From contig QZJF01000005.1 in NCBI GenBank assembly GCA_003599255.1, positions 32,985-96,984 of the forward strand: a DNA stretch of 64,000 nucleotides, in the 5' to 3' direction. Source of the DNA: a candidate division WWE3 bacterium. Its GTDB lineage: Bacteria > Patescibacteriota > WWE3 > UBA101185 > UBA10185. This document shows positions 1-60,870 of this stretch, piece after piece. Within the stretch, counting starts at the first letter, position 1, and the number at the start of each line of letters is the position of its first letter. The notes under the pieces were generated by a model that searched no databases, was not told the origin of the DNA, and was given only the letters and a program-made list of their open reading frames with translations. The translations under genes were made by a program, and so were the position numbers.

Positions 1-390
1 CTTTGGGATATTCAAGGTAACAAGTTTCACGAAATATTGTGGAAGATGTTACATATAGTCGACAACTATAATCCCGATATGACTGTAAAAGTCTTAGAAG
101 AAGGGTATGAAACCATTTCAATTTGGAATCAAGAGGATGTTAAAAGCATACAAAACAAACAATTAGTTGAAGATATAAATTTAAATTTACTCATTTTGAA
201 ATCCATGCATAGCGACCAATTTTGGTGGGCAAGTAATATGACCATCTATGATAAACATCTTTTTAGTCCATTAATGATCGAAAACTCCGTTAATATGTAC
301 AGAAAGATTGCACCTATGTTAAATAATGAAAATCTTTTTAATGAAATCACCGCATTATGTGATGAAGTATCTCTACTTTTGAAATCCTAA
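1..390 (+). CDS. 3' end of a gene entering from upstream of the window; likely C-terminal part of a GH57-family paralog
   Basis: The reading frame is open from nt 1 (LWDIQGNKFHEILWKM...), so the track ORF starting at M37 is the tail of a longer gene. The motif DQFWWASNMT matches DQYWWASAKPWW in the C-terminal helical domain of the adjacent GH57 ORF. Confidence 0.4.
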   Translation, partial: LWDIQGNKFHEILWKMLHIVDNYNPDMTVKVLEEGYETISIWNQEDVKSIQNKQLVEDINLNLLILKSMHSDQFWWASNMTIYDKHLFSPLMIENSVNMYRKIAPMLNNENLFNEITALCDEVSLLLKS

Positions 391-36300: not shown

Positions 36301-39300
36301 TAGGCTGGGTTGGTGGTGCCGACACCAACGTTTGTGCCATTGTCATAAAGAATTCCTGTGGAGAGTGTATTTTCATCAGTCCACCTCGCAACATAATTTG
36401 TTATACCTGTTCCGTCGGTAACATTGAGAAGGGGAGCAGTGGACGCGGAGGTAAGTCTACCTTCAGCATCTACGGTTATTATTGGAATGCCGGTTGCAGA
36501 TCCATAGGTTCCTGCTCCAACGCCTGTATCTGAAAGGTCCAATGTACCGGTACTGTCTATTGTGGCATCACCGCCCATAGCTTTTACATTCCATCCGGTT
36601 CCTGTGCCAAGTAAAATGGAGCCTGATGGTGCGGTAGATGTATCAAGACCTGTGCCGCCGTAGGCGACTCCGAGTTGATTTGAAACATTTGAAGTATTTG
36701 ATAAATCTATAGCGCTTTGAGTCAATATCTGTGAAGCCGCGCTCAATGAAAGGTAGTTGGCGGTTCCTGCAAGCTGAAGCGCCGGATGTGTATCTCCTGC
36801 AAGTGAGTAATTTAAGAAATTCGCATCAAGATCATTGAGAACAGCTTGTACATTAGTACTATTTGAGAAGTCAAACTCATCGTTGACCCCGATAATATAT
36901 GCACCGGAAGTAGTTGGGGCAGAAGTGCTGCTTAACCCAATTGATCCAACAAAGAAATCCGAACCGGATGCAACCCTTACATCACCGTTCACATCAAGTG
37001 TGAATGCCGGTGCGGTTGTTCCAAGGCCGAGTCTGCTGGTATTGCTGTCCCAGAAGAAGCTATCGCTACCAGTTATTGAGGAGGTTCCATCCCAGAAAGC
37101 AACTTGACCTATTGTACCTGCGCCAGTGAGCCCTGCTGCAACCGAGGAGCATTTCCACACTTGCAGGGTAGTGTCCCAGGTAAGTGCTTCACCGTTCGAA
37201 CAGCCGCCCAGAAGTCTAAGACCATCTGCTGTTACTTCTAATCCGGAATTTGATGCAGTAACTGATGTTGTTCCGGTTGTTGTTGCGTCGATCGTTATGT
37301 CATTGGCGTTTACCGTTATTCCGTCTCCGGCCCCTATGTCCAGGGTAAGTACTCCTGTTGTCCCGCCACCGGTCAATCCGGATCCTGCGGTAACGCCGGT
37401 AGTTGCGTAGGTACTAACGTTTGACGAGTCTACTATGACATCAGATCCCCAGTACAAGTCACCGGTAGGTGAGCCTGCTGCTGCGGAAGTGTTCAATATA
37501 TTATTTGTACCCGCAGTACCAAGTCTTATTCCACCGCTTACATCCAGTCTCTCAACAGGGTTTGTGGTACCTATTCCTACATACCCGCTGCCATCGATAA
37601 GAAGTCTTTTAAGAGTAGATTGGCCATCAGAAATCCAGAATTCACCCTGTGTTGTGGCGGTACCGGACCCATCGACCCCTAAATTCCAGGTTCTGATATT
37701 GCTTCTAAGCGCTATGTCGATACCGGTTGTTTGGTTAAACCCATCAGCCAGTATGGCAGTTCCAACTCCAACCACATGAAGTTCTTGATTGGGGTTTGTT
37801 GTACCGATTCCGAAGTAAGTGCCAGTGTCATATGCAATTCCTGTAGATAAAGTATTGCTATCAATCCATCTGGCAACGTAATTGGCAATACCACTGCCAT
37901 CTGTGATATTAAGCAAAGGTGAGGTTGATGCGGCAGTAAGCCTGCCTTCGGAATCTACAGTGATTACTGGTATTCCGGTTGCAGATCCATATGTACCTGC
38001 TCCCACTCCTGTATCGGAAAGATCCAGAGTTCCTGTTGAGTCTATCGTTGCGTCTCCGCCCATAGCCTTAACATTCCATCCTGTTCCTGTACCTATGAGT
38101 AATGTTCCTGAAGGAGCGGTTGAAGTATCAAGTCCGGTACCACCGTAAGCTACTCCCAATTGATTTGAAACGTTAGACGTGTTTGAAAGGTCAATGGCGC
38201 TTTGAGTCAGCACCTGCGACCCATTAAGTGAAAGGTAATTGGCAGTACCTGCGAGCTGAAGAGCAGGGTGTGTGTCAGCAGCCAAAGAGTAGTTTAAGAA
38301 GTTGGCATCAAAGTCATTTAGAACGGCCTGAACATTTGTGCTATTCGAGAAATCGAATTCATCATTTACCCCTATTAAATACGCACCAGATGTTGTTGGG
38401 GCGGAAGTGCTGCTAAGTCCAATTGAGCCAACAAAGAAATCTGATCCGGATGCAACCCTTACATCACCATTAACATCGAGTTTGAATGCAGGGGCTGTTG
38501 TTCCGAGTCCTAATAGTGTTCCTGTATCGTAGAGAAGCCCTGTGGATAATGTATTGTCATCGGTCCATCTGGCAACGTAATTTGCAATGCCGCTTCCGTC
38601 AGTAATATTAAGAAGGGGAGCGGTGGACGCGGAGGTAAGCCTGCCTTCGGCATCTACAGTGAAAACAGGTATTCCTGTGGATGATCCATATGTTCCTGCA
38701 CCTACTCCGGTATCGGAAAGGTCCAGTGTTCCTGTTGAGTCTATTGTTGCGTCTCCGCCCATGGCTTTTACATTCCATCCGGTTCCGGTCCCGATCAAGA
38801 GAGTTCCTGAAGGAGCGGTTGAAGTATCAAGTCCTGTACCTCCGTAAGCTACTCCAAGCTGGTTAGTGACATTTGAGGTGTTCGAAAGATCTATCGCACT
38901 TTGTGTCAATATTTGTGAAGCGGCGTCCAATGAAAGGTAGTTGGCGGTGCCGGCTAGTTGAAGGGCAGGATGTGTATCTCCTGCGAGAGAGTAGTTTAAG
39001 AAATTGGCGTCCAGGTCATTCAATACTGCCTGCACATTTGTACTGTTCGAGAAATCAAACTCATCATTAACTCCTACTAAATATGCACCTGAGGTGGTTG
39101 GAGCAGAAGTGCTGCTTAATCCAATTGAACCTACAAAGAAGTCTGAGCCTGAAGCAACTCTAACATCGCCATTCACATCAAGAGCAAATGCCGGTGCTGT
39201 GGTACCAATTCCAAGTCTGTTTAGAGATGAATCCCAGAAAAAGCTATCACTTCCGGTCAAAGAAGAAGTTCCATTCCAGAATGTTACCTGGCCGATAGCT

Positions 39301-42300
39301 CCCGATCCGCTAACTGCACCAACACCTGAAACGGAGTTGCACTCCCACCTGTCAGCTCCTGCGTTCCAGACCAATAGCTCATTGTCTGAACATCCGCCAA
39401 GAAGTCTAAGTCCGTCCGCTGTTACTTCAAGACCCGAATTTGAGGCTGTTGTTGAGGTTGTTCCTGTGGTAGTTGCATCTATAGTTATGTCATCTGTATT
39501 AACAGTTATCCCATCCCCGGCGCCGACATTAAGGGTTAATGACCCCGGACCTGTTCCGACATTTGTCAGTCCGTCACCCCCAAACACCGAGGTTACTGCA
39601 TAAGAAGATACATTGTTACTGTCAACCAAAGTGCCTGATCTACCTTGTAGCAGATTTAGTTCTGAAGTAGTAATAAGTGCGCCGTTAAGAATATTTATTT
39701 CGGATGCGTCTGCCGTAACTTGAGTTCCGTTTAGATAGAGCGAGGTCATGTTGACGGCTCCGTTAACGTCCAAAGTATAAGAAGAGCCCGGATTGGTAGT
39801 GCCAATTCCGACTCTGGTTCCGTTGTCATAAATAACACCTGTGGAAAGTGTGTTTTCATCGATCCATCTGGCCACATAATTTGTAATACCGGTTCCGTCA
39901 GTGAAGTTAAGTATCGGAGCTGTTGAGGCAGCTGTTAATCTCCCTTCGGCGTCGACTGTGAATACCGGAATGCCTGTTGATGATCCGTATGTACCTGCGC
40001 CTACTCCGGTATCGGAAAGGTCCAGTGTTCCCGTTGAGTCTATAGTTGCGTCGCCGCCCATGGCTTTGACGTTCCATCCTGTGCCTGTGCCAATTAATAA
40101 TGTTCCGGATGGTGCAGTCGAGGTATCAAGACCGGTACCGCCGTATGCAACTCCAAGCTGATTTGAAACGTTAGAGGTATTGGACAAATCTATGGCACTC
40201 TGGGTCAAAACCTGTGATGCTGCATTCAAAGAAAGATAGTTGGCTGTACCTGCTAACTGAAGTGCAGGATGTGTGTCCGATGCTAAAGAGTAGTTTAAGA
40301 AATTGGCGTCCAGGTCATTTAGTACTGCCTGAACATTTGTGCTGTTCGAGAAATCAAACTCATCATTAACTCCCACTAAATATGCACCGGATGTGGTTGG
40401 AGCGGAAGTGCTGCTGAGACCTATGGAACCTACCAGGAAGTCCGAACCTGATGCAACCCTTACATCACCGTTTACATCAAGTGCAAAAGCCGGCGCTGTA
40501 GTACCTATACCCAGTCTGCTAAGCGTTGAATCCCAGAAGAAATTATCGCTTCCGGTTAATGACGATGTACCGTTCCAGAAAGTAACTTGTCCTGCAGATC
40601 CCGATCCGCTTACCGCACCCACGCCTGAAACGGAGTTGCATTCCCATCTGTCAGCACCAGCATTCCAGACTAACAACTCGTTGTTTGAACATCCCCCCAG
40701 TAGTCTGAGACCACTTGCAGTAACTTCCAACCCTGAGTTTGATGCAGTTGTTGAGGTTGTTCCGGTCGTAGTTGCATCTATTGTTATGTCATCTGCGTTT
40801 ACTGTGATGCCGTCTCCCGCACCTACGTTCAAAGTTAATGATCCCGGTCCTGTACCAACATTTGTTAAGCCATTTCCGCCCAAAACTGATGTGACAGCAT
40901 AAGAAGAAACATTGTTGCTATCCAGCAATGTGCCTGATCTTCCCTGTAAAAGATTAAGTTCGGTTACGGTAATCAGTGCGCCGTCCAGTATGTTCAATTC
41001 GGCCGCAGTTGAGGTAACCTGTGACCCGTTGAGATACAAAGCAGTAGTGTTTACGGCACCGTTCACATCCAAAGCGTATGTTGCCCCGGGGTTTGTAGTG
41101 CCGATTCCAACTCTGGTTCCGGTGTCATATATAACTCCGGTTGCGAGAGTATTGTTGTCGGTCCATCTGGCAACATAATTTGCAAGTCCCGTTCCGTCTA
41201 CAATATTCAGGAGTGGGGAAGTGGTCACGGATGTTAATCGTCCTTTTGAATCAACCGTGATTACGGGAACACTTGTTGAGGATCCGTAGGTTGCAGCTGT
41301 AACACCTGTATTGGCTAATGTCAGAGTACCTGTTGAATCTATTGTTGCATCTCCTCCCATGGCTTTAACGTTCCATCCGGTTCCGGTACCAAGCAGAAGT
41401 GTTCCGGAAGGAGCTGTAGAAGTATCAAGTCCGGTACCGCCGTAAGCAACACCAAGCTGATTAGAAACATTTGAAGTATTAGAAAGATCAATGGCATTTT
41501 GAGTTAAAACCTGAGAAGGGCCGTTCAAAGAAAGATAATTTGCCGTTCCTGCAAGTTGTAATGCAGGATGTGAATCTCCGGCCAAAGTACCGAACTGAGC
41601 GTCCAGATCATTAAGCACTGCCTGTACATTTGTTGAATCTGAGTAAGTAAATTCATCATTTACACCGATGAGATAGGCACCGGAAGTGGTTGGTGCAGAA
41701 GTGCTGCTTAGTCCAATTGAGCCTATCAATAAATCGGAGCCTGCGGCAATTCTAATATCGCCGTTTACGTCCAGAGCGAAGGCAGGAGCGGTTGTGCCTA
41801 ATCCAAGTCTGTTTGTGTTGTTGTCCCAGAAGAAGCTGTCGCTGCCGGTTATTGATGAGGTTCCATTCCAGAACGTCACTTGTCCGGTTGCTCCTGATCC
41901 GTTGACAGCGCCAATTCCTGAAACTGAGTTGCATTCCCATCTGTCTGCTCCGGCGTTCCATACTAAGAGCTCACTGTTAGAGCATCCGCCGAGTAATCTA
42001 AGTCCGTCTGCAGTCACTTCCAATCCTGAATTTGATGCAGTAGTTGAGGTTGTTCCGGTTGTGGTCGCATCGATTGTAATGTCATCAGCATTAACGGTGA
42101 TGCCGTTGCCCGCACCGACATTTAGTGTCAGAGATCCCGGACCTGTTCCTGCATTTGTTAATCCACTGCCGCCAAGGACAGAGGTTACAGCATAGGAAGA
42201 CACATTGTTGCTATCGAGTAAAGTACCGGAGCGGCCTTGCAATAGATTGAGTTCGGAAGTCGTAATTAAAGCACCGTCCAAAATGTTGAGTTCTGCCGCC

Positions 42301-45300
42301 GATGAGGTAACCTGTGAACCGGAAAGATATAAGGAAGTCGTATTTATTGCTCCGTTTACATCTAAAGCATATGTGCTATTAGGGCTTGTGGTTCCTATAC
42401 CGACAACGCCGTTTGTATCTATGACAAAGGGTGTTAAATCTCCAGCCGAATCATTAACCAGAAAAGCGTATCCCGAAGGAGCTGTACTCGTAATAGTGAA
42501 TAATCCGCCATCTACATCAAAGAAGAATGGGGAAGTGCTGTCTTCGCCGCCGATTGCTACATCATCCGTGGTAGCTGTTAAAAATGTTATTGCGCCGTTG
42601 TCAGTCCATTTGGAAGCTCCTGCACCTATTGCTGCGTCCAAGTCATTGAGAACAGCTTGTACATTTGTAGCGTTGCTGTTATTAAATTCATCAAAGACTC
42701 CTACGACATAAGCGCCGGATGCAGTAGCACTGGCCGAGTCACCGATACCGATATTTCCGATTATGAAGTCGGAACCTGATGCAACCCTCACATCTCCGTT
42801 TACGTCAACTGCATATGCAGGAGCAGTGGTTCCTATGCCCAGTCTGCTAAGAGTTGAATCCCAGAAAAAGTTATCACTTCCGGTTAAGGACGATGTACCG
42901 TTCCAGAAAGTAACCTGCCCTGTTGCTCCGGATCCGTTGACTGCACCGACACCTGATACAGAATTGCATTCCCATCTATCGGCAAGTGCGTTCCAGACTA
43001 ACAGTTCGTTATTTGAACATCCTCCGATCATTCTTAAACCGGAAGCTGTTACTTCCAACCCCGAATTCGAAGCAGTTGTAGAAGTTGCACCGGTTGTAGT
43101 TGCGTCTATGGTGATGTCATTAGCATTAACGGTAATCCCGTCACCTGCGCCGATGTCGAGAGTTAATGCCCCTGTGGTGCCGCCGCCGGTTAAACCTGAT
43201 CCTGCAGTTACTGCGGTTGTAGCATAAGAACTGACATTGGACGAATCCACCAAGGTTCTTGTGCCCCAGAACAGATCTCCGGTGGGGGATCCTGCGGCTG
43301 CTGATGTATTTAAAACATTGTTTAGTCCTGCTGTCCCCAGTCTGATCGCTCCTGTTACGTCAAGTATTTCAGAAGGACTTGATGTTCCCACACCTACACT
43401 TGTGCCATTGTCAAAAAGTATTCCTGTGGAAAGATTTGTGGGGTCAGTCCATCGCGCTACATAATTTGCGATTCCTGTTCCGCCTAAAGATTGTGATATA
43501 GGGGCCGTGCTGGCAGAAGTAATTCGACCTTTTGCATCTACTGTTATGACAGGAATACCTGTAGTGGATCCGTAGGTTGCCGCGGAGACTCCGGTATTTG
43601 CAAGAGTAAGTGTGCCGGTAGAGTCAATGGCTGCATCTCCGCCCATTGCTTTTACATTCCAACCTGTGCCTGTGCCGATTAAAAGAGTTCCGGACGGTGC
43701 AGTGGAGGTATCAAGACCTGTACCACCGTATGCAACACCGAGTTGATTTGAAACATTAGACGTATTGGAAAGATCTATTGCACTTTGAGTTAGAACTTGT
43801 GACGCTGCGTTAAGTGATAAATAGTTTGCGGTGCCTGCTAATTGAAGTGCAGGGTGCGTATCCCCGGATAGAGTAGAGAGCTGCGCATCCAGATCGTCCA
43901 GCACATCCTGAACTGTGGTACCTGCGGAATAAGTAAATTCATCAAAGACTCCTACTCTTGACGCACCCGAGTCTGTATTTGAAGTGCCTGTATCGTTGAG
44001 TCCGATTGTCCCTATGTATAGATCCGAGCCGGAGGCAATTCTTATGTCTCCGTTCACATCAAGTGCGTAAGCGGGAGCCGTTGTACCGATACCAAGTCTG
44101 CTGGTGTTGCTGTCCCAGAAGAATGCGTCAGTTCCTGTTACAGATGAAGTGCCGTTCCAATAGGTTACCTGACCGGCTGATCCGGACCCGCTTACTGCTC
44201 CCACTCCTGAAACCGAGTTGCATTCCCATCTGTCGGCACCCGCGTTCCATACGAGCAGCTGGTTATTTGCGCATCCTCCCAGCATTCTTAAACCTGATGC
44301 TGTCACTTCCAGCCCTGAATTAGATGCTGTAGTTGAAGTTGCACCGGTCGTGGTCGCGTCAATCGTTATGTCGTCCGCGTTGACTGTTATGCCGTTTCCG
44401 GCTCCCACATTAAGAGTTAAAGATCCGGGGCCGGTTCCTACATTTGTTAAACCATTTCCGCCTAAAACCGAGGTTACTGCGTACGATGCAATGTTATTGT
44501 TATCCAGAAGTGTTCCCGTACGACCGGAAAGGAGATTGAGTTCCGATGTGGTAACAAGTGCGCCGTCAAGAATGTTCAATTCCGAAGCATCCGCAGTAAT
44601 CTGGGAATCATTCAGGTAGAGTGCAGTCATGTTTACCGGTCCATTTACATCAAGTGTGTAGGTAGGGTCAGGACTAGTTGTACCGATACCAACTGTTGTG
44701 CCGTTGTCATAGATGATGCCTGTTGTCAGAGAATTGCTGTCTGTCCATCTTGCCACATAGTTTGTTAGCCCGGTTCCGTCAACTATGTTTATAAGAGGGG
44801 AAGTGGCTGCGGAAGTTATTCTTCCCTCAGCATCAACTGTAACTACCGGTATACCTGTTGATGATCCGTATGTACCCGCTGCGACTCCGGTATCGGAAAG
44901 ATCCAGTGTTCCGGTATTGTCTATTGTCGCGTCACCTCCCATGGCTTTCACATTCCAACCGGTTCCGGTGCCGATCAGGAGAGTTCCCGAAGGGGCGGTT
45001 GATGTGTTAAGGCCGGTACCCCCGTATGCTACACCCAATTGGTTGGAGACATTTGAAGTATTTGAAAGATCTATGGCGCTTTGAGTTAGCACCTGTGAAG
45101 CTGCGTTAAGCGACAGATAATTTGCGGTGCCCGCCAACTGCAGTGCCGGGTGTGTATCTCCCGACAGAGTAGAGAGTTGTGCATCTAAATCGTCAAGTAC
45201 ATCTTGAACATTCGCACCGTTTGAGTAAGTAAATTCATCATTTGTGCCTACCAGATATGCTCCGGATGTTGTCGGGGAAGCGGTGTCTGTTAGACCGATT

Positions 45301-47555
45301 GACCCTATATGTAAATCCGAGCCGGAGGCAACCCTCACATTGCCGTTAACATCAAGAGAATACTGTGGATTTGTTGTTCCAATACCCACATTCCCCGAAC
45401 CATCTATGACAAAGGGTGTCGTATCAGCTGAACTATCGTTCACTCTAAACGAAAAACCGGATGTTGTGTTTGTCAGCGTTAATAGTTCATTTGTTATATC
45501 CAGGAAAAACGGAGAGCCCGGTTCACTTCCGCCTATCGATAAGTTTTGTGAGGTGGACACCGGGTGAATTGTCCCTGAGGTTACTGTCCATATTCCGCTT
45601 CCACCGCCGATTGCTGCGTTGTATGCGGTATTTATTGCGTCTACTATAGCTGTGTCTCCGCTGTCAAAATCTGTGTCAATATCTGTCATGGTGATTGGGG
45701 AGGTAAGTGTCGCGTCGTCGAAAGTAAGTGTGGTACCGCTTATACTTATTGCGTCTCCACCATCACCCAGATTAACTGGGCCGTTTGCTACAAGTGCTCC
45801 GGAAGAAATGGTCACGCCACCGCCTATTGTCATCCATTGGGAGAAAGTAGATGTGCCGTTTACGGTTAAAAGTTCGGTTCCCGGGTTCCATGTTATTTGA
45901 GTATCATCGTTTGTCAGTGTTCCGGCACTATCGGCAAAGAAAACTCCGTATGGATCAAATCCCGTGGTTGTAATAGGTCCAATGACCGATCCGTAAATTG
46001 TTCCCCCAACTTCCAGACTACCTTCGATGTATTGACTTTCTGACATACCTCCAACATAAGTAGGTGCTGTTGAGCCGTCCCCGATGTGAAGGGTTGTCAC
46101 GGGGCTTGTTGTTGAAATACCTACCCTTCCTGTTTCAGTAATCCTTAATCTCGTTATGTCGTTAGTTCTAAATGAAAGTCCTACATTGTCAGTGGTACCG
46201 ATAAAGTCTACATCGGGATCCGATCCGGCATTTCCTGCCAGAAGCCAGGAAATATCTCCAAAAAAAGTGGAAGTATTGGACCACTCCGGGGTTGTGCCAT
46301 CAGATGTCAAAATGTATCCGTTTGTTCCGGTTATTGAAATTACGGATAAGGTGTTAGAAGCCGAAGCGTACAAAAGATCCCCGGTTGTGTACGATGTCAA
46401 CCCAGTTCCTCCATTTTCAGGAGCTATTTCTGTACCTTGCCATACACCCGTGGTTATTGTGCCAAGTTGTGTAATTTCAGTCTGAGGTACGCTGGTCCAA
46501 TCACCATCAACTGCCATAATTATATTGTCATCATCTGTCGATAAGTCTCCAAAGGTGGCACCGTTAATGCTGACAACAGTTACATTACCCAGTCCGGTAC
46601 CTTCCACATCCCCACCGATATCAAGAGCTTCCTCTAAAGTTGTTTCGGTGACTTCATTGATAGCTCCCAAGTTGTTCAATGCCGCCGTTCCGATAAAGTT
46701 TACTTCTCCGGCGGTTATGGCTCCGGTTCCAAAATTCGCATCGGCGTTGTTTGTAGTAATGCCGCCTAGGAGAGAGGACAATTCATTAACAGTCAGGTCT
46801 TTTTCAAGTGTAATTGTCTCTCTAAATATCCCGGGCACACTAAGTCTGAACACAAAGTTTGCGTTTCGATCAACCGCAGCCAGAACATTGTCATAGAATG
46901 ACATCTTACCGGACTGCGGTACTTCTTTTCTTTGCGCAAATGCGCCTGATATTACGTGTACAAAATTATCTTTAAAACCCATGAAGGTTAGCAATCCAAA
47001 TGCAAAAACGATGAATATTATAATGCCCCCTATCTTTGTGAGTTTAGGATTTATGTGTATATGACTAAGAATGACGGATTTTCGTTTAATATCATTTAAC
47101 TTTGTCACTTCTTCAGGAATACTAGTGTCAGTCTTTGTCGCATTGATTTCATGATCAGCTTTTGTTTGTGCACCTAAATCCTGTTTCAATTTATTTTGCG
47201 AAAGAGCTTTCAATGTTCCTGTAAGGTTTAAAAGATCCGCTCTTGGAGACGCTTGAGGAACAGGAATGGAAGTAGTGGAAGAGTTAGTATTTTTTTTGAG
47301 ATCGGCTTTTTGATTGTTTAAATCCGTTTTCAGATTTAAAACATCACTGCGTTTAAACATTCTATACCCGTTAGGTTGTCGGATGGAGTTTACTTTATTC
47401 TCGCTTTCAAATCTGCGGAGAGTTGAAGAAGATACGCCTAATAACTTAGCTGCCTCGGAAACATTTAAAAGTTGTTTGGTAGATATGCTTGAAGAACTAT
47501 GTGATTTACTTGCAGGTTTTTTTCGTCTTTTTCTTTGGGCAGAAACTGAGCTCAT
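30279..47555 (-). CDS. Giant tail-fibre-like surface protein 4 (5758 aa): N-terminal Xis/MerR-type HTH, TM helix, reiterated fibre modules, C-terminal peptidase S74 intramolecular-chaperone domain, coiled-coil/(STE)5 tail
   Basis: Uninterrupted 17.3-kb ORF preceded by an AAGGA RBS. Residues 27–76 (LLNVSEAAKLLGVSSSTLRRFESENKVNSIRQPNGYRMFKRSDVL) match the excisionase/MerR-type HTH_17 pattern. The TM helix is IGGIIIFIVFAFGLLTFMGF at residues 175–194. About 5000 aa follow, made of three module types with recurrent GIGTT(S/N/A)Px..LDVNG motifs. Near the C-terminus LSSSERFKKDISDLDINLDSVLQLNPVTFKWN...FGLIAEQVEQVMPFLV matches the S74/endosialidase chaperone domain. Confidence 0.85.
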   Translation of the reverse strand: MSSVSAQRKRRKKPASKSHSSSSISTKQLLNVSEAAKLLGVSSSTLRRFESENKVNSIRQPNGYRMFKRSDVLNLKTDLNNQKADLKKNTNSSTTSIPVPQASPRADLLNLTGTLKALSQNKLKQDLGAQTKADHEINATKTDTSIPEEVTKLNDIKRKSVILSHIHINPKLTKIGGIIIFIVFAFGLLTFMGFKDNFVHVISGAFAQRKEVPQSGKMSFYDNVLAAVDRNANFVFRLSVPGIFRETITLEKDLTVNELSSLLGGITTNNADANFGTGAITAGEVNFIGTAALNNLGAINEVTETTLEEALDIGGDVEGTGLGNVTVVSINGATFGDLSTDDDNIIMAVDGDWTSVPQTEITQLGTITTGVWQGTEIAPENGGTGLTSYTTGDLLYASASNTLSVISITGTNGYILTSDGTTPEWSNTSTFFGDISWLLAGNAGSDPDVDFIGTTDNVGLSFRTNDITRLRITETGRVGISTTSPVTTLHIGDGSTAPTYVGGMSESQYIEGSLEVGGTIYGSVIGPITTTGFDPYGVFFADSAGTLTNDDTQITWNPGTELLTVNGTSTFSQWMTIGGGVTISSGALVANGPVNLGDGGDAISISGTTLTFDDATLTSPITMTDIDTDFDSGDTAIVDAINTAYNAAIGGGSGIWTVTSGTIHPVSTSQNLSIGGSEPGSPFFLDITNELLTLTNTTSGFSFRVNDSSADTTPFVIDGSGNVGIGTTNPQYSLDVNGNVRVASGSDLHIGSIGLTDTASPTTSGAYLVGTNDEFTYSNGANVQDVLDDLDAQLSTLSGDTHPALQLAGTANYLSLNAASQVLTQSAIDLSNTSNVSNQLGVAYGGTGLNTSTAPSGTLLIGTGTGWNVKAMGGDATIDNTGTLDLSDTGVAAGTYGSSTGIPVVTVDAEGRITSAATSPLINIVDGTGLTNYVARWTDSNSLTTGIIYDNGTTVGIGTTSPDPTYTLDVNGPVNMTALYLNDSQITADASELNILDGALVTTSELNLLSGRTGTLLDNNNIASYAVTSVLGGNGLTNVGTGPGSLTLNVGAGNGITVNADDITIDATTTGATSTTASNSGLEVTASGLRMLGGCANNQLLVWNAGADRWECNSVSGVGAVSGSGSAGQVTYWNGTSSVTGTDAFFWDSNTSRLGIGTTAPAYALDVNGDIRIASGSDLYIGTIGLNDTGTSNTDSGASRVGVFDEFTYSAGTTVQDVLDDLDAQLSTLSGDTHPALQLAGTANYLSLNAASQVLTQSAIDLSNTSNVSNQLGVAYGGTGLDTSTAPSGTLLIGTGTGWNVKAMGGDAAIDSTGTLTLANTGVSAATYGSTTGIPVITVDAKGRITSASTAPISQSLGGTGIANYVARWTDPTNLSTGILFDNGTSVGVGTSSPSEILDVTGAIRLGTAGLNNVLNTSAAAGSPTGDLFWGTRTLVDSSNVSSYATTAVTAGSGLTGGGTTGALTLDIGAGDGITVNANDITIDATTTGATSTTASNSGLEVTASGLRMIGGCSNNELLVWNALADRWECNSVSGVGAVNGSGATGQVTFWNGTSSLTGSDNFFWDSTLSRLGIGTTAPAYAVDVNGDVRVASGSDFIIGNIGIGDSASATASGAYVVGVFDEFNNSNATNVQAVLNDLDAAIGAGASKWTDNGAITFLTATTDDVAIGGEDSTSPFFFDVDGGLFTITSTAPSGYAFLVNDSAGDLTPFVIDTNGVVGIGTTSPNSTYALDVNGAINTTSLYLSGSQVTSSAAELNILDGALITTSELNLLQGRSGTLLDSNNVSSYAVTSVLGGSGLTNAGTGPGSLTLNVGAGNGITVNADDITIDATTTGTTSTTASNSGLEVTADGLRLLGGCSNSELLVWNAGADRWECNSVSGIGAVNGSGATGQVTFWNGTSSITGSDSFFWDNNTNRLGLGTTAPAFALDVNGDIRIAAGSDLLIGSIGLSSTSAPTTSGAYLIGVNDEFTYSDSTNVQAVLNDLDAQFGTLAGDSHPALQLAGTANYLSLNGPSQVLTQNAIDLSNTSNVSNQLGVAYGGTGLDTSTAPSGTLLLGTGTGWNVKAMGGDATIDSTGTLTLANTGVTAATYGSSTSVPVITVDSKGRLTSVTTSPLLNIVDGTGLANYVARWTDNNTLATGVIYDTGTRVGIGTTNPGATYALDVNGAVNTTALYLNGSQVTSTAAELNILDGALITVTELNLLQGRSGTLLDSNNVSSYAVTSVLGGNGLTNVGTGPGSLTLNVGAGDGITVNADDITIDATTTGTTSTTASNSGLEVTASGLRLLGGCSNNELLVWNAGADRWECNSVSGVGAVSGSGSAGQVTFWNGTSSLTGSDNFFWDSTLSRLGIGTTAPAFALDVNGDVRVASGSDFLVGSIGLSSTSAPTTSGAYLVGVNDEFDFSNSTNVQAVLNDLDANFLNYSLASDTHPALQLAGTANYLSLNAASQVLTQSAIDLSNTSNVSNQLGVAYGGTGLDTSTAPSGTLLIGTGTGWNVKAMGGDATIDSTGTLDLSDTGVGAGTYGSSTGIPVFTVDAEGRLTAASTAPILNFTDGTGITNYVARWIDENTLSTGVIYDNGTRVGIGTTNPGSSYTLDVNGAVNMTSLYLNGTQVTADASEINILNGALITTSELNLLQGRSGTLVDSNNVSSYAVTSVFGGDGLTNVGTGPGSLTLNVGAGDGITVNTDDITIDATTTGTTSTTASNSGLEVTADGLRLLGGCSDNELLVWNAGADRWECNSVSGVGAVSGSGAIGQVTFWNGTSSLTGSDSFFWDSSLNRLGIGTTAPAFALDVNGDVRVASGSDFFVGSIGLSSTSAPTTSGAYLVGVNDEFDFSNSTNVQAVLNDLDANFLNYSLAGDTHPALQLAGTANYLSLDAASQILTQSAIDLSNTSNVTNQLGVAYGGTGLDTSTAPSGTLLIGTGTGWNVKAMGGDATIDSTGTLDLSDTGVGAGTYGSSTGIPVFTVDAEGRLTSASTAPLLNITDGSGIANYVARWTDDNTLSTGLLYDTGTLLGLGTTAPAFKLDVNGDVRVASGSDFFVGSIGLSSTSAPTTSGAYLIGVNDEFDFSNSTNVQAVLNDFDANFLNYSLAADTHPALQLAGTANYLSLNGSQVLTQSAIDLSNTSNVSNQLGVAYGGTGLDTSTAPSGTLLIGTGTGWNVKAMGGDATIDSTGTLDLSDTGVGAGTYGSATGIPVITVDSEGRLTAASTSPLLNITDGSGIANYVARWIDSNTLSTGIAYDTGTYFGIGTTNPNQELHVVGVGTAILADGFNQTTGIDIALRSNIRTWNLGVDGSGTATTQGEFWISDGQSTLKRLLIDGSGYVGIGTTNPVERLDVSGGIRLGTAGTNNILNTSAAAGSPTGDLYWGSDVIVDSSNVSTYATTGVTAGSGLTGGGTTGVLTLDIGAGDGITVNANDITIDATTTGTTSVTASNSGLEVTADGLRLLGGCSNGEALTWDTTLQVWKCSSVAAGLTGAGTIGQVAFWDGTSSITGSDSFFWDSNTSRLGLGTTAPAFTLDVNGDVRVASGSDFFVGSIGLSSTSAPTTSGAYIIGVNDEFDFSNSTNVQAVLNDLDANFLNYSLAGDTHPALQLAGTANYLSLSAASQILTQSAIDLSNTSNVSNQLGVAYGGTGLDTSTAPSGSILLGTGTGWNVKAMGGDATIDSTGTLDLSDTGVGAGTYGSATGIPIITVDAEGRLTSASTAPLLNVTDGTGITNYVARWTDENTLSTGILYDNGTNVGVGTTNPAYILDVYSGSTTGGLGVFADSVTTGTGALFSFDGLTTGTGLSISSTSSSFSTGTLAAVDWSPLSSATASGDLFSINIGSNGSLTGNLFAVYDDGAAVFTVQQNQIESAVPHVFTAAGDVSFSYDAIFTNQTSAQIESYGPFSIIAGESFESNNLTLRTYGTGNIIADLGGNFVLYDNDPTLVFDTETATDTDFWMGILENSDNTDNDLLVIGDGTSSGTNPFFAITTSGDIGIGTTNPAAKLEINGAIRLGGETIGDFVGSGLIVSGTALSLDVTTTSTTSTTAANSGLEVTADGLRLLGGCADGEALIWDSSREVWDCTAVAAGLSGSGTAGQVAFWDGSTSLTGNDSLFWDSGTSRLGLGTTAPDAILHAVGGDLYVAPDSGYTFDNASAAEDLYVFGNLEIDGTIYGNTASLGQIDIGGESIGDFVGDGLIVSGTALSLDVTTTSTTSTTASNSGLEVTADGLRLLGGCSNGEALTWDTSQEVWKCSSVAAGLTGSGSIGQVAFWDGTSSITGSDSFFWDTSTGRLGLGTTAPAFTLDVNGDIRIASGSDLLIGSIGLSSTSAPTTSGAYLVGVNDEFDFSNSTNVQAVLNDLDANFLNYSLASDTHPALQLAGTATYLSLDGSQVLTQSAIDLSSSLNVSNVLGTTNGGTGLDTSTAPSGSLLIGTGTGWNVKAMGGDATIDSTGTIDLSDTGVAAGTYGSTTGIPIVTVDAEGRLTSASTAPLLNITDGTGIANYVARWTDNNTLSTGILYDDGTNVGVGTTNPSYMLEVFSGSTTGGLGVFADSVTTGTGALFSFDGLTTGTGLSISSTSTAFSTGTLAAVDWSPLSSATASGDLFSINIGSNGSLTGNLFAVYDDNSPLFTITQSQITSYLPHTFSSAGDVSFSYDAIFTNQTSSQIESYGPFTIIAGESFENNDLTLRTYGSGDIVADLGGNFVLYDNDPTLLFDVESGTDTDFWMGVLEDSDSTDDDIFAIGDGLSSGTNPFFVINTSGNIGIGTTNPAATLDVNGTIRLGGETIGDFVGNGLILSGTALSLDVATTSTTSTTASNSGLEVAADGLRLLGGCGNGELLTWDSSQQVWKCSPEAGSGTITGTGVAGRVSFWDGSSSLASSQDFYWDNINSRMGIGNSSPQDTLHINGGFRIQESGYSSYTSIDTYSLGVGSGTMRFFADGTNGLSYDFRDQFGSIFNIGSGTNDSTFNYGLNVNGDTTLGDDSSDTLTLNAGTWISSNTASLNLAASTTALNIESGLMNFDTTNARVGIGTVTPQNKLDISGNAVIGSYAGTDTAPANGLLVSGNVGIGTTAVGYQLDVRSATTQGALGVFADNVTTGTGALFSFDGLTTGTGLSVSSTSTTLAGALTSIDWSPISSSTATGDLFKINIGSNGTLDGGNLFGVYDDNSELFTINQTVITSYLPHSFAAAGDVSIANDIQFTGQSSSYIKTYAPLYLEVGESHESNNLTLRTFNSGDVVLDAAGGVTLNQAQAWSLATSTTALNFGNNLLNLDTTNDRIGIGTTTPQNTLDVFGNAAFGTYAGVSTAPTNGLIVSGNVGIGTSEPGYTLDVNGTARVSNIPTGTGTALYFDSNNQLIQLSSSERFKKDISDLDINLDSVLQLNPVTFKWNSTTVTPDVEDFGLIAEQVEQVMPFLVSYEADGITPKGVKYDRLGVVLLGALQEQQIQIDSFGDVMGITTQLQTDVQDTYQQVTDTTVGFDTRITTLESEFAQLTQNYDNLGNDFITLEEEVDNVKNDVALIKELLGMGSSTQSTESTESTESTESTESFNLLTLLTDPMGILNQIETLYNDFKDMVSELGLQNNDGQLAVTTDLNVTGDTTLSNLVVTGDLMAGLVEIDSLSNSIGIVGPSCYNETLGTTNQVLCEAQTLYLQKELSGNLDIFDGKIVLEPNGTLTVDGTINAEKVVADEFSVKGTSTLVGSGTITAGQTEVLIANTNVKAGSKIFVTATSSTNGQALIVKEKIDGTSFKVGLDVPHFQDISFDWWILNVE
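32000..45500 (-). repeat. Large intragenic tandem repeats in giant gene 4 (about 0.65–2.3 kb units, at least 8 copies of modules A/B and 3 copies of module C)
   Basis: Opposite-strand shadow ORFs with near-identical translations recur at 34546, 36835, 38338, 39004, 40339, 41686, 42763 and 44218 (MLFEKSNSSLTPTKYAPEVVGAEVLL...). A second shadow series appears at 33151 and 35266. Protein blocks such as TSTTASNSGLEVTA(S/D)GLRLLGGCSNNELLVWNAGADRWECNSVSG are repeated at least 6 times with about 85–95% identity. Confidence 0.8.
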
Positions 47556-47582
47556 TTTTTATCCTTTTCAAATGTTGTTATA

Positions 47583-47632
47583 AAAACATTTGATAATGTT
47601 TTAATGATATGAAACACAGGTTTATGTGTCAA
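47583..47632 (-). promoter_or_regulatory. Sigma70-like promoter of giant gene 4 with an overlapping palindromic operator-like element
   Basis: Read on the minus strand: TTGACA at 47632–47627, a 17-nt spacer, then TATCAT at 47609–47604. Just downstream lies AAAACATT-tgat-AATGTTTT (47583–47602), with a further inverted copy CAAATGTT at 47569–47576 between the predicted TSS and the RBS. Confidence 0.4.
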
Positions 47633-48335
47633 CACTTTTCGAAGGTTGGAATATGTTGTTGTTACAATATATAATGCCTGTCAATGTGTATTGATAAACG
47701 TGAATATTTTTTTTGTTGTTACAGCAATAAAAGATAACCTTTATTTTTAATATAAATTCCTGCAAAAATCGAGTAAACTTTGTCCGGAATTATTTGACCT
47801 GTGACTTTGAAAATTATTTAAAAAATATTGTAAATTTTGCGATACTGTTGTCATATATTTTCCTAGTGACTTCTTTTCTCTAAGTTTTTGTGTTTCGTTT
47901 GTCCGGTTAATTGATTTGTAAAAAATTTGAAACAGTTTTAAACTTAGATTTCAAAGGTCATTAATTTTAGACATAGATTTTCATATAACCATGCCTGGGT
48001 AAAAAAGTAGTTCATTTGTTAATCTTTTAGATATCTCAAGGATGCACTGCGAACTTACATATTTTCTATTTAACCCATGTAACTCTCAAGTTTACTTAAT
48101 ACTTTAAAAAATTTTTAATTTCTGTAGAATTTTATTAACGGCTTTTACCTTTAATCTACATTTTTTAATTACGGCTTATTGCTCGGACAGCGTAGTGAGT
48201 TAAGATCCAGCTTGACGTCAATGGAGATTATTATAATGACCGTTAGAGTAGTGATGTTTTTAATGTTTACCAAATGCCGTCGATACAGCATTTAACAATG
48301 TATATTTGTTTAAATATTCTGGTTGTATCGTGTAG

Positions 48336-49124
<789 letters not shown>

Positions 49125-56426: not shown

Positions 56427-57032
56427 ATGTTTATTAGTCTTTTATTACAAAATCCGCTTATTTTTGTTCTGGTAGCCGCTGCGTTGATCGTTTCCATAAC
56501 TTTTCATGAATTCGCCCACGCGTTTTCAGCTGACAAACTGGGGGATCCCACCGCCAGATACCTTGGAAGGGTTTCACTTAATCCTGTAAAACATCTTGAT
56601 CCCATAGGAACAATGCTTCTTTTATTCGTGGGTTTCGGATGGGGGAGACCTGTGCCATTTAATCCGATAAATTTACAAAATCCAAAGAGGGATTCAGCAA
56701 TAATTTCTTTTGCCGGGCCGCTTTCAAATTTTGTACTTGCTTTTGTATTTGCGCTGTTGTTTAGGTTTGTCGGTGGAGTTGGGCTAATCGGTGATTTTCT
56801 GTATTTAAGTACATTTTATAATCTTCTTTTGGGATTTTTTAACTTATTTCCATTTCACCCGCTTGACGGATTCAAGGTTGTTTACGGACTACTCCCTATG
56901 AATTTGGCGTATCAGTGGCTACAGATGCAATCCTACGGAATGTACATTCTGCTTTTTATGATAATTACAGGTACAACCGGATCTATCATGGGTCCCTTAG
57001 TGAGTTTTTCTTTGAGATTGTTAGGTTTCTGA
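56427..57032 (+). CDS. Site-2-protease-family (M50-like) membrane metalloprotease
   Basis: HEFAHA (an HExxH motif inside a TM helix) plus NLFPFHPLDGFKV, the S2P LDG motif. The protein has about 6 TM segments and is 201 aa long. Confidence 0.6.
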   Translation: MFISLLLQNPLIFVLVAAALIVSITFHEFAHAFSADKLGDPTARYLGRVSLNPVKHLDPIGTMLLLFVGFGWGRPVPFNPINLQNPKRDSAIISFAGPLSNFVLAFVFALLFRFVGGVGLIGDFLYLSTFYNLLLGFFNLFPFHPLDGFKVVYGLLPMNLAYQWLQMQSYGMYILLFMIITGTTGSIMGPLVSFSLRLLGF

Positions 57033-57302
57033 ATAAGTCGTTAAACCGGAGTCATTTGACTGAAAGATGCGTTTTGTTAGAATGGAATAGATGGAGTTAC
57101 ATCCACTCCTGGTGTGCGCGTTCAATCTGAAGGCAAAGAATCACCTCAGCTGATTCTGAGATCAGACAACCCAGATCTTTATCCCACGGGATAAAAGGCA
57201 AGGTGTCTACTTCTAAACGAACGGGGTTTCTGCTTCAGGCCCGGCACATCGGGATGCATTTATTGCAAGTATAAAAGGTTCCGCCGAAAGGCGGAACTTT
57301 TT
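57033..57302 (+). promoter_or_regulatory. Candidate structured leader (riboswitch/attenuator or small ncRNA) ending in an intrinsic terminator immediately 5' of folD
   Basis: About 270 nt with no ORF. Local hairpins are AGTCA-ttt-TGACT, GGAGT-tacatcc-ACTCC, CTGAT-tctgag-ATCAG and ATCCC-acg-GGGAT. It ends in the perfect hairpin GGTTCCGCC-GAAA-GGCGGAAC plus TTTTT (57277–57302), 2–20 nt before the folD start. Confidence 0.35.
57277..57302 (+). terminator. Intrinsic terminator (hairpin plus U-tract) directly upstream of folD
   Basis: GGTTCCGCC GAAA GGCGGAAC TTTTT: a 9-bp GC-rich stem, a GNRA-like loop and a T-run. Confidence 0.65.
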
Positions 57303-57303
57303 A

Positions 57304-58131
57304 GTGGTGTATAATTCATCGATGGAAATTTTTAACGGTAATAGTCATGCAAAAGAGCTTGATAAGGTAATTGCCGAAAATATTAGATTGGTCAAAAGTT
57401 CGGATATTATGGCCATAGTTCAAATAGGGGATAACGAGGTTTCAGAATCCTATGTAAATCTTAAACTCCGATACTGTCGTAAAATGGGGCTTAACGCCAA
57501 GTTTTTTAAGTTCGACGCCTCATTGTCGGATAAAGAAATCTCAAAACAGGTTTCAAACATCTTTAGCGAAAAAAATGTCCGGGGAGGAATTATACAACTT
57601 CCGCTACCCAGAAAGAGTCTAAATAGTATCCTAAATCAGATTCCGCTAAACAAAGATATAGATAGGCTTTCGAGTACTTCATGGACCCAATCGGATACAA
57701 CTAGTGGGGTAGGATTATCACCGGTTGTCCGTGCGTTTAAGTTTTTTCTGAACACATATTCCATAGATATTCACAACATTTCAATTAAAATCATAGGTAG
57801 AGGTCCGCTTGTAGGAGTGCCAATAGAGGATTATTTGCTATCACGAGGGGTAAAACCGGGGTTTTTGGATAGCTATGTTGAGGGAATCCCTATTAGCGCG
57901 GACTTGGTGGTGACTTCGACAGGTATACCAAACCTAATAAAAGGATCTGACATACAATCGGGATGCGATGTTATTGACTTCGGTTCGGCCAAATTACACG
58001 GAAAAACCGTGGGCGATCTTGATTTGAATTCAGGGCTTGATCATCTGGCCAGAATTTCTCCTTCTCCCGGGGGTATGGGGCCGTTGGTTATAAGATTTCT
58101 TGTACTGAATTATCTTGGTGTTAATTTGTGA
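57304..58131 (+). CDS. folD: Bifunctional methylenetetrahydrofolate dehydrogenase/cyclohydrolase (probable true start at M57322)
   Basis: IDGKA-like N-terminus (FNGNSHAKELDKVIAENI), then AIVQIGDNEVSESYVNLKLRYCRKMGL, IQLPLPRK and the C-terminal GGMGPLVIRFLVLN. These match the FolD pattern. Confidence 0.8.
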   Translation: MVYNSSMEIFNGNSHAKELDKVIAENIRLVKSSDIMAIVQIGDNEVSESYVNLKLRYCRKMGLNAKFFKFDASLSDKEISKQVSNIFSEKNVRGGIIQLPLPRKSLNSILNQIPLNKDIDRLSSTSWTQSDTTSGVGLSPVVRAFKFFLNTYSIDIHNISIKIIGRGPLVGVPIEDYLLSRGVKPGFLDSYVEGIPISADLVVTSTGIPNLIKGSDIQSGCDVIDFGSAKLHGKTVGDLDLNSGLDHLARISPSPGGMGPLVIRFLVLNYLGVNL

Positions 58132-59137
58132 GTTTCAGTTTTTCCGCGAGTTCGACAACCTTTTCAACTACATCCTTCGGGGAGCTTGCTTTCATATTAA
58201 AACCTGCAGCCATTTTATGCCCGCCGCCGCCCATTAATTTTGCTAGCTGCGAAACATCTATGTGTTCGTAATGTGATCTTAGACTTACGTTATACATGTT
58301 ATTTTCGTCTTTAAGCTCGGTTACAACAAACACGAAGTTTGCGTTTCTGAGTCTCTTTATAATGTCAGCCGGAGGGTAGACTGTTTCATTAAGATTGATG
58401 TTGCGCTCCTCAAGATGTTTTTGCGTCAGGATTACATACGCCAATTTTCTTGCAGTATCCACTTCCATGTTAGTAAACACCAGACCCTTTAGTTTCATAT
58501 CTTCGTAATCTTCATTAAAATTCAATTTCCAAATAAGTTCGTATAGGCTAACACCCATATCCATATAGTCCGCTGCGGCCCGGAGATCTTCGGTTGTTGT
58601 AGTGTTGTACTGAAAAAACCCGTTGTCTGTAATGTTGCCCAGCAACAGGATCTTTGCGATGTCTTTGTCAATCTTAATGTTCATTTCCTTCAATAGTTCG
58701 TACAACACCGTGCAAGCCGACCCAAAGACCTTCACATAATTCAGGTCTCCATAATGAGAATTGGAGTCATGATGATCAATGTTCAGGATGGGTATTTTTA
58801 CATTTGGTGTAAAAGTTTGTGATTCTGCGATGTGTCCCAATTGTCCCGCGTCCAGTACAATTAACAAGTCATGTTTGGAGAAATCAAGGTTGTTTGGGTC
58901 AACATTCTCTTCTATCCCGCTGATATCGAAAATGTCATTAACAATTTCTCTTGTCCGTCCGCTAAATGCTCCGGTTCTGGTAATCCTTAAATCTATATCA
59001 AAATGTTTCTTTAAGACCTTTTGCAAGGCAACAGGAGCGCATAACGCATCAAAGTCAAACCTTGAGTCCATACATACTACGGGCTTTTTTGTTTTTTTCA
59101 GAAGTTCCAGAATTCTTTCCGGTGCATCATTATTCAT
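58121..59137 (-). CDS. DHH/DHHA1 phosphoesterase (NrnA-like oligoribonuclease / pAp phosphatase)
   Basis: DHH motifs VVCMDSRFDFDAL, LIVLDAGQ and NIDHHDSNSH, plus the DHHA1 motif GGGGHKMAAGF. Confidence 0.8.
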   Translation of the reverse strand: MNNDAPERILELLKKTKKPVVCMDSRFDFDALCAPVALQKVLKKHFDIDLRITRTGAFSGRTREIVNDIFDISGIEENVDPNNLDFSKHDLLIVLDAGQLGHIAESQTFTPNVKIPILNIDHHDSNSHYGDLNYVKVFGSACTVLYELLKEMNIKIDKDIAKILLLGNITDNGFFQYNTTTTEDLRAAADYMDMGVSLYELIWKLNFNEDYEDMKLKGLVFTNMEVDTARKLAYVILTQKHLEERNINLNETVYPPADIIKRLRNANFVFVVTELKDENNMYNVSLRSHYEHIDVSQLAKLMGGGGHKMAAGFNMKASSPKDVVEKVVELAEKLKLTN

Positions 59138-60434: not shown

Positions 60435-60533
60435 ATTAGTATTTTAACAGTTGCAGGGGATTTATTTGAAACTATCAGAACGAGAGAGGAAGTGATATCC
60501 AAACTCGTTCTGATTGATTAAGAGCTTGCTGCT

Positions 60534-60797
60534 CTATCGACCGTGACTCTTGCGAGAAATCCGTTCGTCCCATTTGCGTTTGCGCGATTCATCAGAAACT
60601 GCCGCAGCAACGATGAGGACGCCTGAAACAATAGCCGGAAGCAGGGTAAACTTAAGAAGACCCGCCCAGCTCATTGCGATCATCCTGAAATATTCATTTG
60701 CGGAATAGTTCAGGGTCAGGGCCGACAGGACCATCAGCACGATTTGTGCGATGATAATGCCGAAACCAAGCGTAAGCTTTACATTGAATGGCATCAT
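60534..60797 (-). CDS. Small 2-TM membrane protein, unknown function
   Basis: 87 aa with two hydrophobic helices and a basic C-terminal tail. I recognise no motif. Confidence 0.3.
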   Translation of the reverse strand: MMPFNVKLTLGFGIIIAQIVLMVLSALTLNYSANEYFRMIAMSWAGLLKFTLLPAIVSGVLIVAAAVSDESRKRKWDERISRKSHGR

Positions 60798-60870
60798 GGT
60801 TCACCTTTCCTTTTTTAGGGTTTGTTGTTGATGTAGAAGATTTTACTACCGTTTTTATAAGTAGACAAAC

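Follow-up and report, generated by a model that had tools for sequence, protein, structure and literature searches.

A candidate divergent 6S RNA encoded between an M50 peptidase gene and folD in a candidate division WWE3 bacterium

Introduction

The 6S RNA family (SsrS; Rfam family RF00013), which includes SsrS of Escherichia coli, 6S-1 of Bacillus subtilis and the 6S RNA of Aquifex aeolicus, is made up of rod-shaped RNAs of approximately 200 nucleotides (nt), in which a closing stem and an apical stem are separated by a central bubble (PMC8876501), with conserved G-C pairs on both sides of this bubble (PMC4064990). In this work, we analyzed a stretch of 64,000 nt of DNA from a candidate division WWE3 (Patescibacteria) bacterium (GenBank assembly GCA_003599255.1, contig QZJF01000005.1, positions 32,985 to 96,984 of the forward strand), hereafter referred to as the window, with positions counted from its first letter. 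We describe a structured RNA encoded in the spacer between a gene for an M50-family peptidase and folD, with a conserved core of ~150 nt (57106-57255, plus strand), that is likely to be a divergent 6S RNA. An initial annotation of the same spacer had proposed a riboswitch or attenuator of folD and, as a fallback, a free-standing small RNA, for instance 4.5S or 6S RNA.

Two other kinds of described RNAs resemble this locus in part. The Ms1 RNA, which was identified in Actinobacteria, is described as akin to 6S RNA in structure and as a ligand of the RNA polymerase core (PMC9130861). On the other hand, the ZTP (pfl, RF01750) and tetrahydrofolate (THF; RF01831 and RF02977) riboswitches are structured RNAs with a terminator, placed just before a gene of one-carbon metabolism, as is the WWE3 RNA. 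Below, we present the evidence on the conservation, structure and transcription of this RNA, and we compare it with each of these systems.

A conserved structured RNA in the spacer upstream of folD

The spacer between both genes spans positions 57033-57321 (289 nt) and is non-coding. It is preceded by the gene of a 201 amino acid small membrane peptidase of the M50 family (56427-57032, plus strand), identified by its open reading frame (ORF), by a match to Pfam PF02163 (E = 2.9e-14) and by synteny, and it is followed by folD (57322-58131, plus strand), which encodes a 269 amino acid bifunctional methylene-THF dehydrogenase/methenyl-THF cyclohydrolase with the Pfam domains PF00763 and PF02882. 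The start of folD corresponds to ATG 57322, and not to the GTG at 57304 given by the ORF finder; from this ATG, the window FolD is 100% identical to a database protein of 269 amino acids (P0001). Since folD starts at this position, the initial estimate of 270 nt for the spacer has to be corrected to 289 nt. The companion claim, that the other spacers of the window measure 3-60 nt, is only roughly right: in a rough ORF map the median is 15 nt, and gaps of 789, 436, 270, 163 and 132 nt also exist.

The plus strand of the region 57088-57305 folds with a minimum free energy (MFE) of -82 kcal/mol, as compared with -56.6 +/- 4.2 kcal/mol in dinucleotide shuffles (z = -6.1), and none of 200 shuffles was as good. 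Together with the conservation and covariation found in 25 homologues (see below), this bears out the presence of a structured non-coding region before folD. No reading frame is open through the core across all homologues, and the possibility that the spacer contains a coding gene was rejected on this basis.

A search of species genomes for related loci with the window FolD alone yielded no close relative; the nearest relatives of this protein (<=57% identity) are encoded in metagenome-assembled genomes (MAGs) of candidate division WWE3 and other Patescibacteria. Homologues of the RNA were gathered by (i) inspection of the contigs that carry FolD homologues, and (ii) a scan of 185,579 species genomes with a degenerate DNA pattern. 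All contigs reached through FolD homologues share the same arrangement, with the L1, L11, NusG and SecE genes on one strand, the M50 gene, a gap of 300-400 nt and folD. Alignment of these gaps revealed the conserved blocks CCUGRUGUGnnCG...CYGAR... and ...AACGGRG...CGnCACAYYGGG, a terminator whose sequence differs by clade, and a TATAAT hexamer immediately upstream of the start codon of folD. The pattern scan returned 38 stretches, 23 of which are true copies, all of them from WWE3 or from MAGs labelled as Patescibacteria, and including the complete genome CP006914.1. The other 15 were discarded as random matches in other, mostly higher-GC genomes: 11 were tested with a covariance model of the family (R1) and none matched, and four were rejected by sequence.

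In total, 25 distinct homologues were identified, all in WWE3/Patescibacteria, and the core is located 90-110 nt downstream of the M50 stop codon, on the same strand, in all 24 loci for which upstream DNA is available. Model R1 has a single match in the window, at 57106-57255 (97.6 bits). A second model (R2), built without the window copy and its closest relative, also has a single match in the window, at the same positions (61.4 bits, E = 3.4e-13). The window copy is a member of this WWE3 RNA family. As a side observation, the MAGs with loci L020, L021, L023, L024, L030, L031, L033 and L038 are labelled "uncultured Candidatus Saccharibacteria bacterium" and carry the WWE3-type M50-RNA-folD locus; these labels look doubtful, since the locus is held in common with WWE3 genomes.

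Secondary structure of the RNA

The core of the RNA folds as a rod with a large central bubble. From the alignment of the 25 sequences (A3), RNAalifold recovered helix P1, part of P2, P4 and P5, while the extensions of P2 and helix P3 were added from the comparison between clades. In the consensus of 37 pairs, whose five helices have the support of covariation, 91.5% of the cells are paired and 19 of the 37 pairs have changed on both sides, so that the covariation for which the initial annotation had proposed to look in homologous leaders is present. As for the controls, none of 500 shuffles reached any of these measures and slid partners paired in only 36-48% of the cells. The structural conservation of this RNA exceeds chance.

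In the window copy, the 5' strand of the closing stem (57108-57147, plus strand) is formed by P1 (CCUGGUGUG, 57108-57116), P1b (57118-57120), an internal loop (UUCAAU), P2 (CUGAAG(g)CA, 57127-57135) and P3 (GAA(uc)ACCUC, 57138-57147), as placed by covariation, covariance-model alignment and alignments A3/A4. It is followed by the 5' strand of the central bubble, which comprises 16 nt (AGCUGAUUCUGAGAUC, 57148-57163) that are unpaired in the covariation-supported consensus. The apical stem-loop (57164-57208), supported by the fold and by covariation, includes P4 (AGACA.CC/GG.UGUCU), P5 (UUUAUCC/GGAUAAA) and a loop of 4 nt. Next, the 3' strand of the bubble comprises 14 nt (ACUUCUAAACGAAC, 57209-57222; alignments A3/A4), and the 3' strand of the closing stem (57223-57253), placed by the same evidence as its 5' strand, is composed of GGGGU-UUC (P3), UG-CUUCAG (P2), the loop GCC, CGG (P1b) and CACAUCGGG (P1).

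P1 is nearly invariant in sequence across the homologues. Compensatory changes affect three pairs in P4 and six pairs in P5, and the apical loop is C-GAAA-G in most relatives. Helix P3 reads GAA-uc-ACCUC/GGGGU-UUC in the window, GAU-uu-CCUC/GGGG-AUC in locus L012, GAG-auuu-CCUC/GAGG-g-CUC in L016 and UGA-uu-UCUC/GGGA-u-UCA in L038; the changes in its outer pairs (GAA/UUC, GAU/AUC, GAG/CUC and UGA/UCA) were read from the sequences, and those of inner P3 and of P4 were counted. The central bubble is flanked by the G-C pairs C44-G126, G64-C111 and G65-C110 in 23 of the 25 sequences, and in the window copy by a C-G pair at the closing side and by A-U/G-C pairs (AGACA/UGUCU) at the apical side. It should be noted that the MFE fold of the window copy is multi-branched; this fold was rejected in favor of the rod because P3 and P4 vary compensatorily between clades and the local hairpins are not conserved.

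Similarity of the WWE3 RNA to 6S RNA

The rod-with-bubble architecture prompted the hypothesis that this is a 6S RNA, which was set down before it was tested; the gathering cut-off of RF00013 is 46.4 bits. When six small homologous loci were scanned permissively with Rfam, RF00013 was found on L033 (21.7 bits, E = 0.58 within 13 kb). Narrow scans of representatives of the different clades then gave RF00013 matches in L038 (25.4 bits, E = 0.0014), L033 (21.7 bits, E = 0.011) and L049 (17.0 bits, E = 0.14), and no match in L032 or in the window. In these three of the five clades, the match covers the full model (1-187) on the right strand, ends within 4 nt of the ends of the core, and is the sole full-length match among the 4227 families.

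In the alignments with RF00013, P1/P1b, P4 and P3 correspond to the closing stem of the model, the GGG/CCC start of its apical stem and its second closing helix, respectively, and the 5' (16 nt) and 3' (14 nt) bubble strands of the model fall on those of the WWE3 RNA. Thus, the two strands of the WWE3 bubble have the lengths of the Rfam consensus. In most relatives, the 3' bubble strand reads (CCC)ACCUnnAnnnAAAC, and the homologues match the RF00013 consensus "CCCACCUgg.aAcagCa" at this place; the window copy departs from the CCCAC block and reads GUCUAC. The conserved letters ccCUgcgguGUUCG, GGG, CCCACCU and CGGCac..GGg of RF00013 coincide with near-invariant blocks of the WWE3 RNA. The blocks common to both, CCUG..GUG(U/C)UCG, GGG, (C)CCAC(C/U)U and CG(G/A)CAC..GGG, stand at highly conserved positions of RF00013, those written in capital letters, and in L033 approximately 29 of the 41 visible conserved positions are identical.

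Taking into account the rod architecture, the conserved blocks of the family and a similarity to RF00013 that is specific although below the cut-off, we consider it likely that this RNA is a divergent 6S RNA (SsrS), and the sub-threshold similarity is most likely that of a divergent homologue. The RNA also has the G-C pairs that flank the bubble in 6S RNA and the size of a stand-alone RNA of this family (roughly 150-200 nt), with a core of 150 nt and a predicted transcript of ~213 nt. There are differences as well. Its core is shorter than the 184 nt of the E. coli RNA and nearer to the ~158 nt of the Aquifex 6S RNA; a further hairpin is present at its 5' end, and it has a Rho-independent terminator of its own; and its neighbor is folD and not the gene of 5-formyl-THF cyclo-ligase. 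Ms1 RNA is longer (~300 nt) and binds the polymerase core, and the WWE3 RNA keeps the conserved sequence blocks of 6S RNA.

Several observations weigh against this identification. First, every RF00013 score (17-25 bits) is below the gathering cut-off, and by the rule of Rfam the RNA is not a member of the family; the window copy and the L032 clade have no RF00013 match even at E <= 10. Second, L038, L033 and L049 are homologous to each other, and their E-values are therefore not independent; moreover, rod-like RNAs may outscore random sequence on a model of low information. Third, the RF00013 scans covered the window and individual loci, and a better 6S candidate may be encoded elsewhere in a WWE3 genome. 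Fourth, a search of a 20-kb locus with the WWE3 models missed E. coli ssrS (L051:9984-10166). This latter result neither supports nor refutes homology, as both RNAs have few identical positions in common: their closing stems are alike by eye (CUCUGAGAUGUUCGC...GGCAUCUCGGAG in E. coli and CCUGAUGUGCUCG...CGACACAUCGGG in WWE3), and the remainder is too different.

The 5' bubble itself provides further points of this kind, as local hairpins can be drawn inside it (CUCAG/CUGAG in the window). In addition, a collapse helix such as that of B. subtilis 6S-1 was no better than shuffles in the window and the other clades, and its complementarity was marginal in the L020 clade only (z -1.1 to -2.6). The members of this clade (L020, L008, L013, L015, L025 and related loci) carry GAUCUUC in the 5' bubble (columns 50-60 of alignment A4), a near-repeat of AUCUUC in the 5' strand of P3 that is fully complementary to GGAGAUC in the 3' strand of P3, which makes it a possible collapse helix. 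Neither a conserved helix of this kind nor a 3'-bubble hairpin, the elements of pRNA-induced refolding in 6S RNA, could be demonstrated. Since it is not general across clades, bubble collapse was dropped as evidence. A literature search did not find the 5' sequence of B. subtilis 6S-1 (taken as ...GUCCUGAUGUG...), and it was likewise not used as evidence.

An alternative that accommodates these observations is that the RNA is a structured small RNA specific to the WWE3 lineage with some other function (e.g., protein-sequestering or trans-acting), its likeness to 6S RNA being due to convergence or chance. This would agree with scores far below gathering, with two of five clades lacking a match and with the failure of the WWE3 models on E. 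coli 6S RNA, and the near-invariant sequence of P1 could reflect a specific protein site. However, it would leave to coincidence that a single family out of 4227 matches at full length, on the right strand and almost exactly at the core ends in three clades, and that the shared blocks occupy the positions in the structure that they have in the 6S consensus, with matching bubble sizes and flanking G-C pairs. For these reasons, we regard this alternative as unlikely and favor a divergent 6S RNA.

Predicted promoter and terminator of the RNA gene

Upstream of the core, a consensus scan identified a sigma-70 promoter (57056-57083, plus strand) with the -35 hexamer TTGACT (57056-57061), a 16-nt spacer and the extended -10 element TGtTAGAAT (57075-57083), with 10 of 12 matches plus the TG. 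The pattern TTGnnn-16..18-TAnnnT ends 23-31 nt upstream of the core in 22 of the 25 distinct homologues. Transcription is predicted to start near 57089-57090, just upstream of a 5' hairpin (P0, UGGA/UCCA, 57092-57105, plus strand) that was found by folding and that precedes the core. A hairpin is present at this position in every clade, with a clade-specific sequence (e.g., GCUCaaacGAGC, GAUAUCguaaGAUAUC and CAUUAGCgaaaGCUAAUG).

Downstream of the core, the sequence and fold show an intrinsic terminator, AAAA-GGUUCCGCC-GAAA-GGCGGAAC-UUUUU (57273-57302, plus strand). Its hairpin and T-run (57277-57302; GGTTCCGCC-GAAA-GGCGGAAC followed by TTTTT in DNA letters) correspond to the strong terminator upstream of folD that had been recognized from the start. 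A GC-rich hairpin followed by a U-run is found 10-35 nt past the core in every homologue, and the stem sequences are unrelated between clades. The primary transcript is thus predicted to span ~57090-57302 (~213 nt), and the spacer most likely harbors an independent small-RNA gene on the plus strand with its own sigma-70 promoter and intrinsic terminator.

The constant position of the RNA, 90-110 nt downstream of the M50 gene and on the same strand, would also be expected if it were a 3' untranslated region (UTR) or processing element of the M50 mRNA, co-transcribed with this gene and acting on it. Nevertheless, in 22 of 25 homologues a well-placed sigma-70 promoter separates the RNA from the M50 stop codon, and a 3'-UTR element would leave the similarity to 6S RNA unexplained, which makes this explanation highly improbable.

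Relationship between the RNA gene and folD

The folD gene has a TATAAT hexamer of its own (57310-57315, plus strand), which ends 6 nt before the start codon. A TATAAT-like hexamer ends 6 nt (range 5-7) before the ATG or GTG of folD in 22 of 23 WWE3 relatives; this spacing is kept even in L013, where folD is located 700 nt from the RNA, and L021 fits by eye. A hexamer this close to the start of folD leaves no space for a Shine-Dalgarno sequence, which implies a leaderless or near-leaderless folD mRNA. Based on these sequence features, folD is predicted to be transcribed from its own promoter.

In three relatives, the RNA and folD are not linked, and the RNA has stayed beside the M50 gene in all of them. 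An unrelated gene, of 185 amino acids in L013 and of 343 amino acids in L021, is inserted between the RNA and folD, and no folD is present within 5.3 kb downstream of the RNA in L025. Elsewhere, the distance from the end of the core to the folD start is usually 56-182 nt, and that from the terminator to folD ranges from ~20 to ~100 nt (alignment A2). In the window, the T-run ends 19 nt before ATG 57322.

These data bear on the proposal of a transcription-attenuating leader, in which an RNA sensing a ligand (of the ZTP or THF type or of a new class) would determine, by means of its terminator, whether transcription continues into folD. A structured RNA with a terminator 19 nt before a one-carbon-metabolism gene, in an adjacency retained in most relatives, is what such a leader would look like, and the location of the E. 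coli 6S gene in the 5' UTR of a folate gene makes some read-through into folD conceivable (PMC4064990). However, no riboswitch family has a match at the gathering score or at E <= 10 in the spacer, the ZTP, THF and THF-II models are also without a match in the six homologous loci, and the string GCGCGUUCAAUCUG, once thought reminiscent of the THF aptamer, falls within the closing stem and an internal loop of the RNA. The stems of the terminator vary freely by clade next to a 3' strand of P1 that hardly changes, so that no conserved antiterminator is possible, and the distance from terminator to folD varies widely. Since the RNA and folD have separate promoters and their linkage is broken in three relatives, the terminator belongs to the RNA gene and is not an expression platform of folD. 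The adjacency of the RNA and folD is a matter of synteny and not of cis-regulation, with folD as a neighbor rather than a target, and we find a riboswitch or attenuator very hard to sustain.

We also considered the housekeeping RNAs of the organism, namely the signal recognition particle (SRP, 4.5S) RNA, RNase P RNA and transfer-messenger RNA (tmRNA). A conserved RNA gene that occurs once in the DNA examined could be any of these, and 4.5S RNA is rod-like as well. Against this, none of these families has a match at E <= 10 (for SRP RNA, including RF00169 and RF01854), and ARAGORN finds no tRNA or tmRNA. The conserved apical motif of 4.5S RNA was not seen; the C-GAAA-G apical loop sits on a plain covarying A-U stem, without the conserved symmetric and asymmetric loops of SRP domain IV, a GNRA-capped helix. 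The sequence also lacks the RNase P RNA motifs GAGGAAAGUCC and ACAGAAnCCGGCUUA. Identity with one of these three RNAs is thus extremely improbable, and SRP RNA, RNase P RNA, tmRNA, Y RNA and 5S rRNA were rejected, as neither matches nor motifs were found.

In the window spacer, the Rfam scan at E <= 10 gave only spurious matches, to the terminator hairpin. The search proposed in the initial annotation (RF01750, RF01831, RF02977, RF00169 and RF00013) returned no match at this threshold; of the two RNAs named in its fallback, it is 6S RNA, and not 4.5S RNA, that agrees with our analysis.

Other features of the window

The sole Rfam match at the gathering threshold in the whole window is an L10 leader (RF00557, 5556-5732, minus strand; 63.5 bits, E = 9e-8), contained in the 270-nt gap upstream of a 176 amino acid ORF (4970-5500). 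Two longer stretches free of ORFs in the rough map, 47556-48344 (789 nt) and 60435-60870 (436 nt), have no Rfam match at the gathering threshold. The minus strand carries four giant ORFs arranged head to tail, 5771-13909 (2712 amino acids), 13966-22929 (2987 amino acids), 23093-30307 (2404 amino acids) and 30279-47555 (5758 amino acids), which lie within 5771-47555 (~42 kb) and take up two thirds of the window.

Finally, folD and a convergent DHH/DHHA1 phosphoesterase gene (58121-59137, minus strand) share 11 nt at their 3' ends (58121-58131). This overlap leaves no space for a terminator between both genes.

Discussion

If the WWE3 RNA acts as its described counterparts do, it would mimic an open promoter and bind the housekeeping sigma-70-type RNA polymerase holoenzyme, which it would sequester under nutrient scarcity. 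By the same analogy, the polymerase would copy the 5' strand of the bubble, and on into the closing stem, to give a short product RNA (pRNA) and thereby free itself from the 6S-like RNA. This pRNA is predicted to be approximately 5'-GCUGAGGUGAUUC, antisense to ~57138-57150, with a start near C57150 by analogy with U44 of E. coli. Trimming may remove the 5' hairpin and the terminator from the transcript, or both may stabilize the RNA.

The position of the WWE3 RNA directly upstream of a folate one-carbon gene is shared with E. coli, in which ssrS lies directly upstream of fau/ygfA, the gene of 5-formyl-THF cyclo-ligase (L051:9984-10790), and the ssrS-ygfA linkage has been described as conserved in many bacteria (PMC4064990). 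The enzymes encoded by fau/ygfA and folD both act on 5,10-methenyl-THF. It could be speculated that the adjacency of 6S RNA and folate genes in groups as distant as Proteobacteria and WWE3 reflects an old functional coupling between polymerase sequestration and the formyl-/methenyl-folate pool. If true, this coupling would serve the supply of purines and fMet-tRNA on exit from starvation, perhaps via partial read-through of the 6S terminator. We hold such a coupling to be quite improbable: synteny in WWE3 extends over the whole ten-gene neighborhood, and three relatives do not have the link, so that the adjacency of the 6S-like RNA and folD is probably coincidental. Even so, it echoes the unexplained ssrS-ygfA linkage of Proteobacteria and offers a small, testable curiosity.

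Our literature search found no paper linking 6S RNA with Patescibacteria or WWE3. The gene described here is most likely of an ordinary kind, which would add a divergent member to a known RNA family from a lineage that is under-annotated. Its analysis removes a false riboswitch lead. It also provides a covariation-supported alignment of 25 sequences of a 6S-like RNA from a lineage of the candidate phyla radiation in which the Rfam model falls below threshold, and this alignment could extend the annotation of 6S RNA to reduced, uncultured bacteria. If the identity as 6S RNA is true, even very small genomes would retain this global regulator of RNA polymerase.

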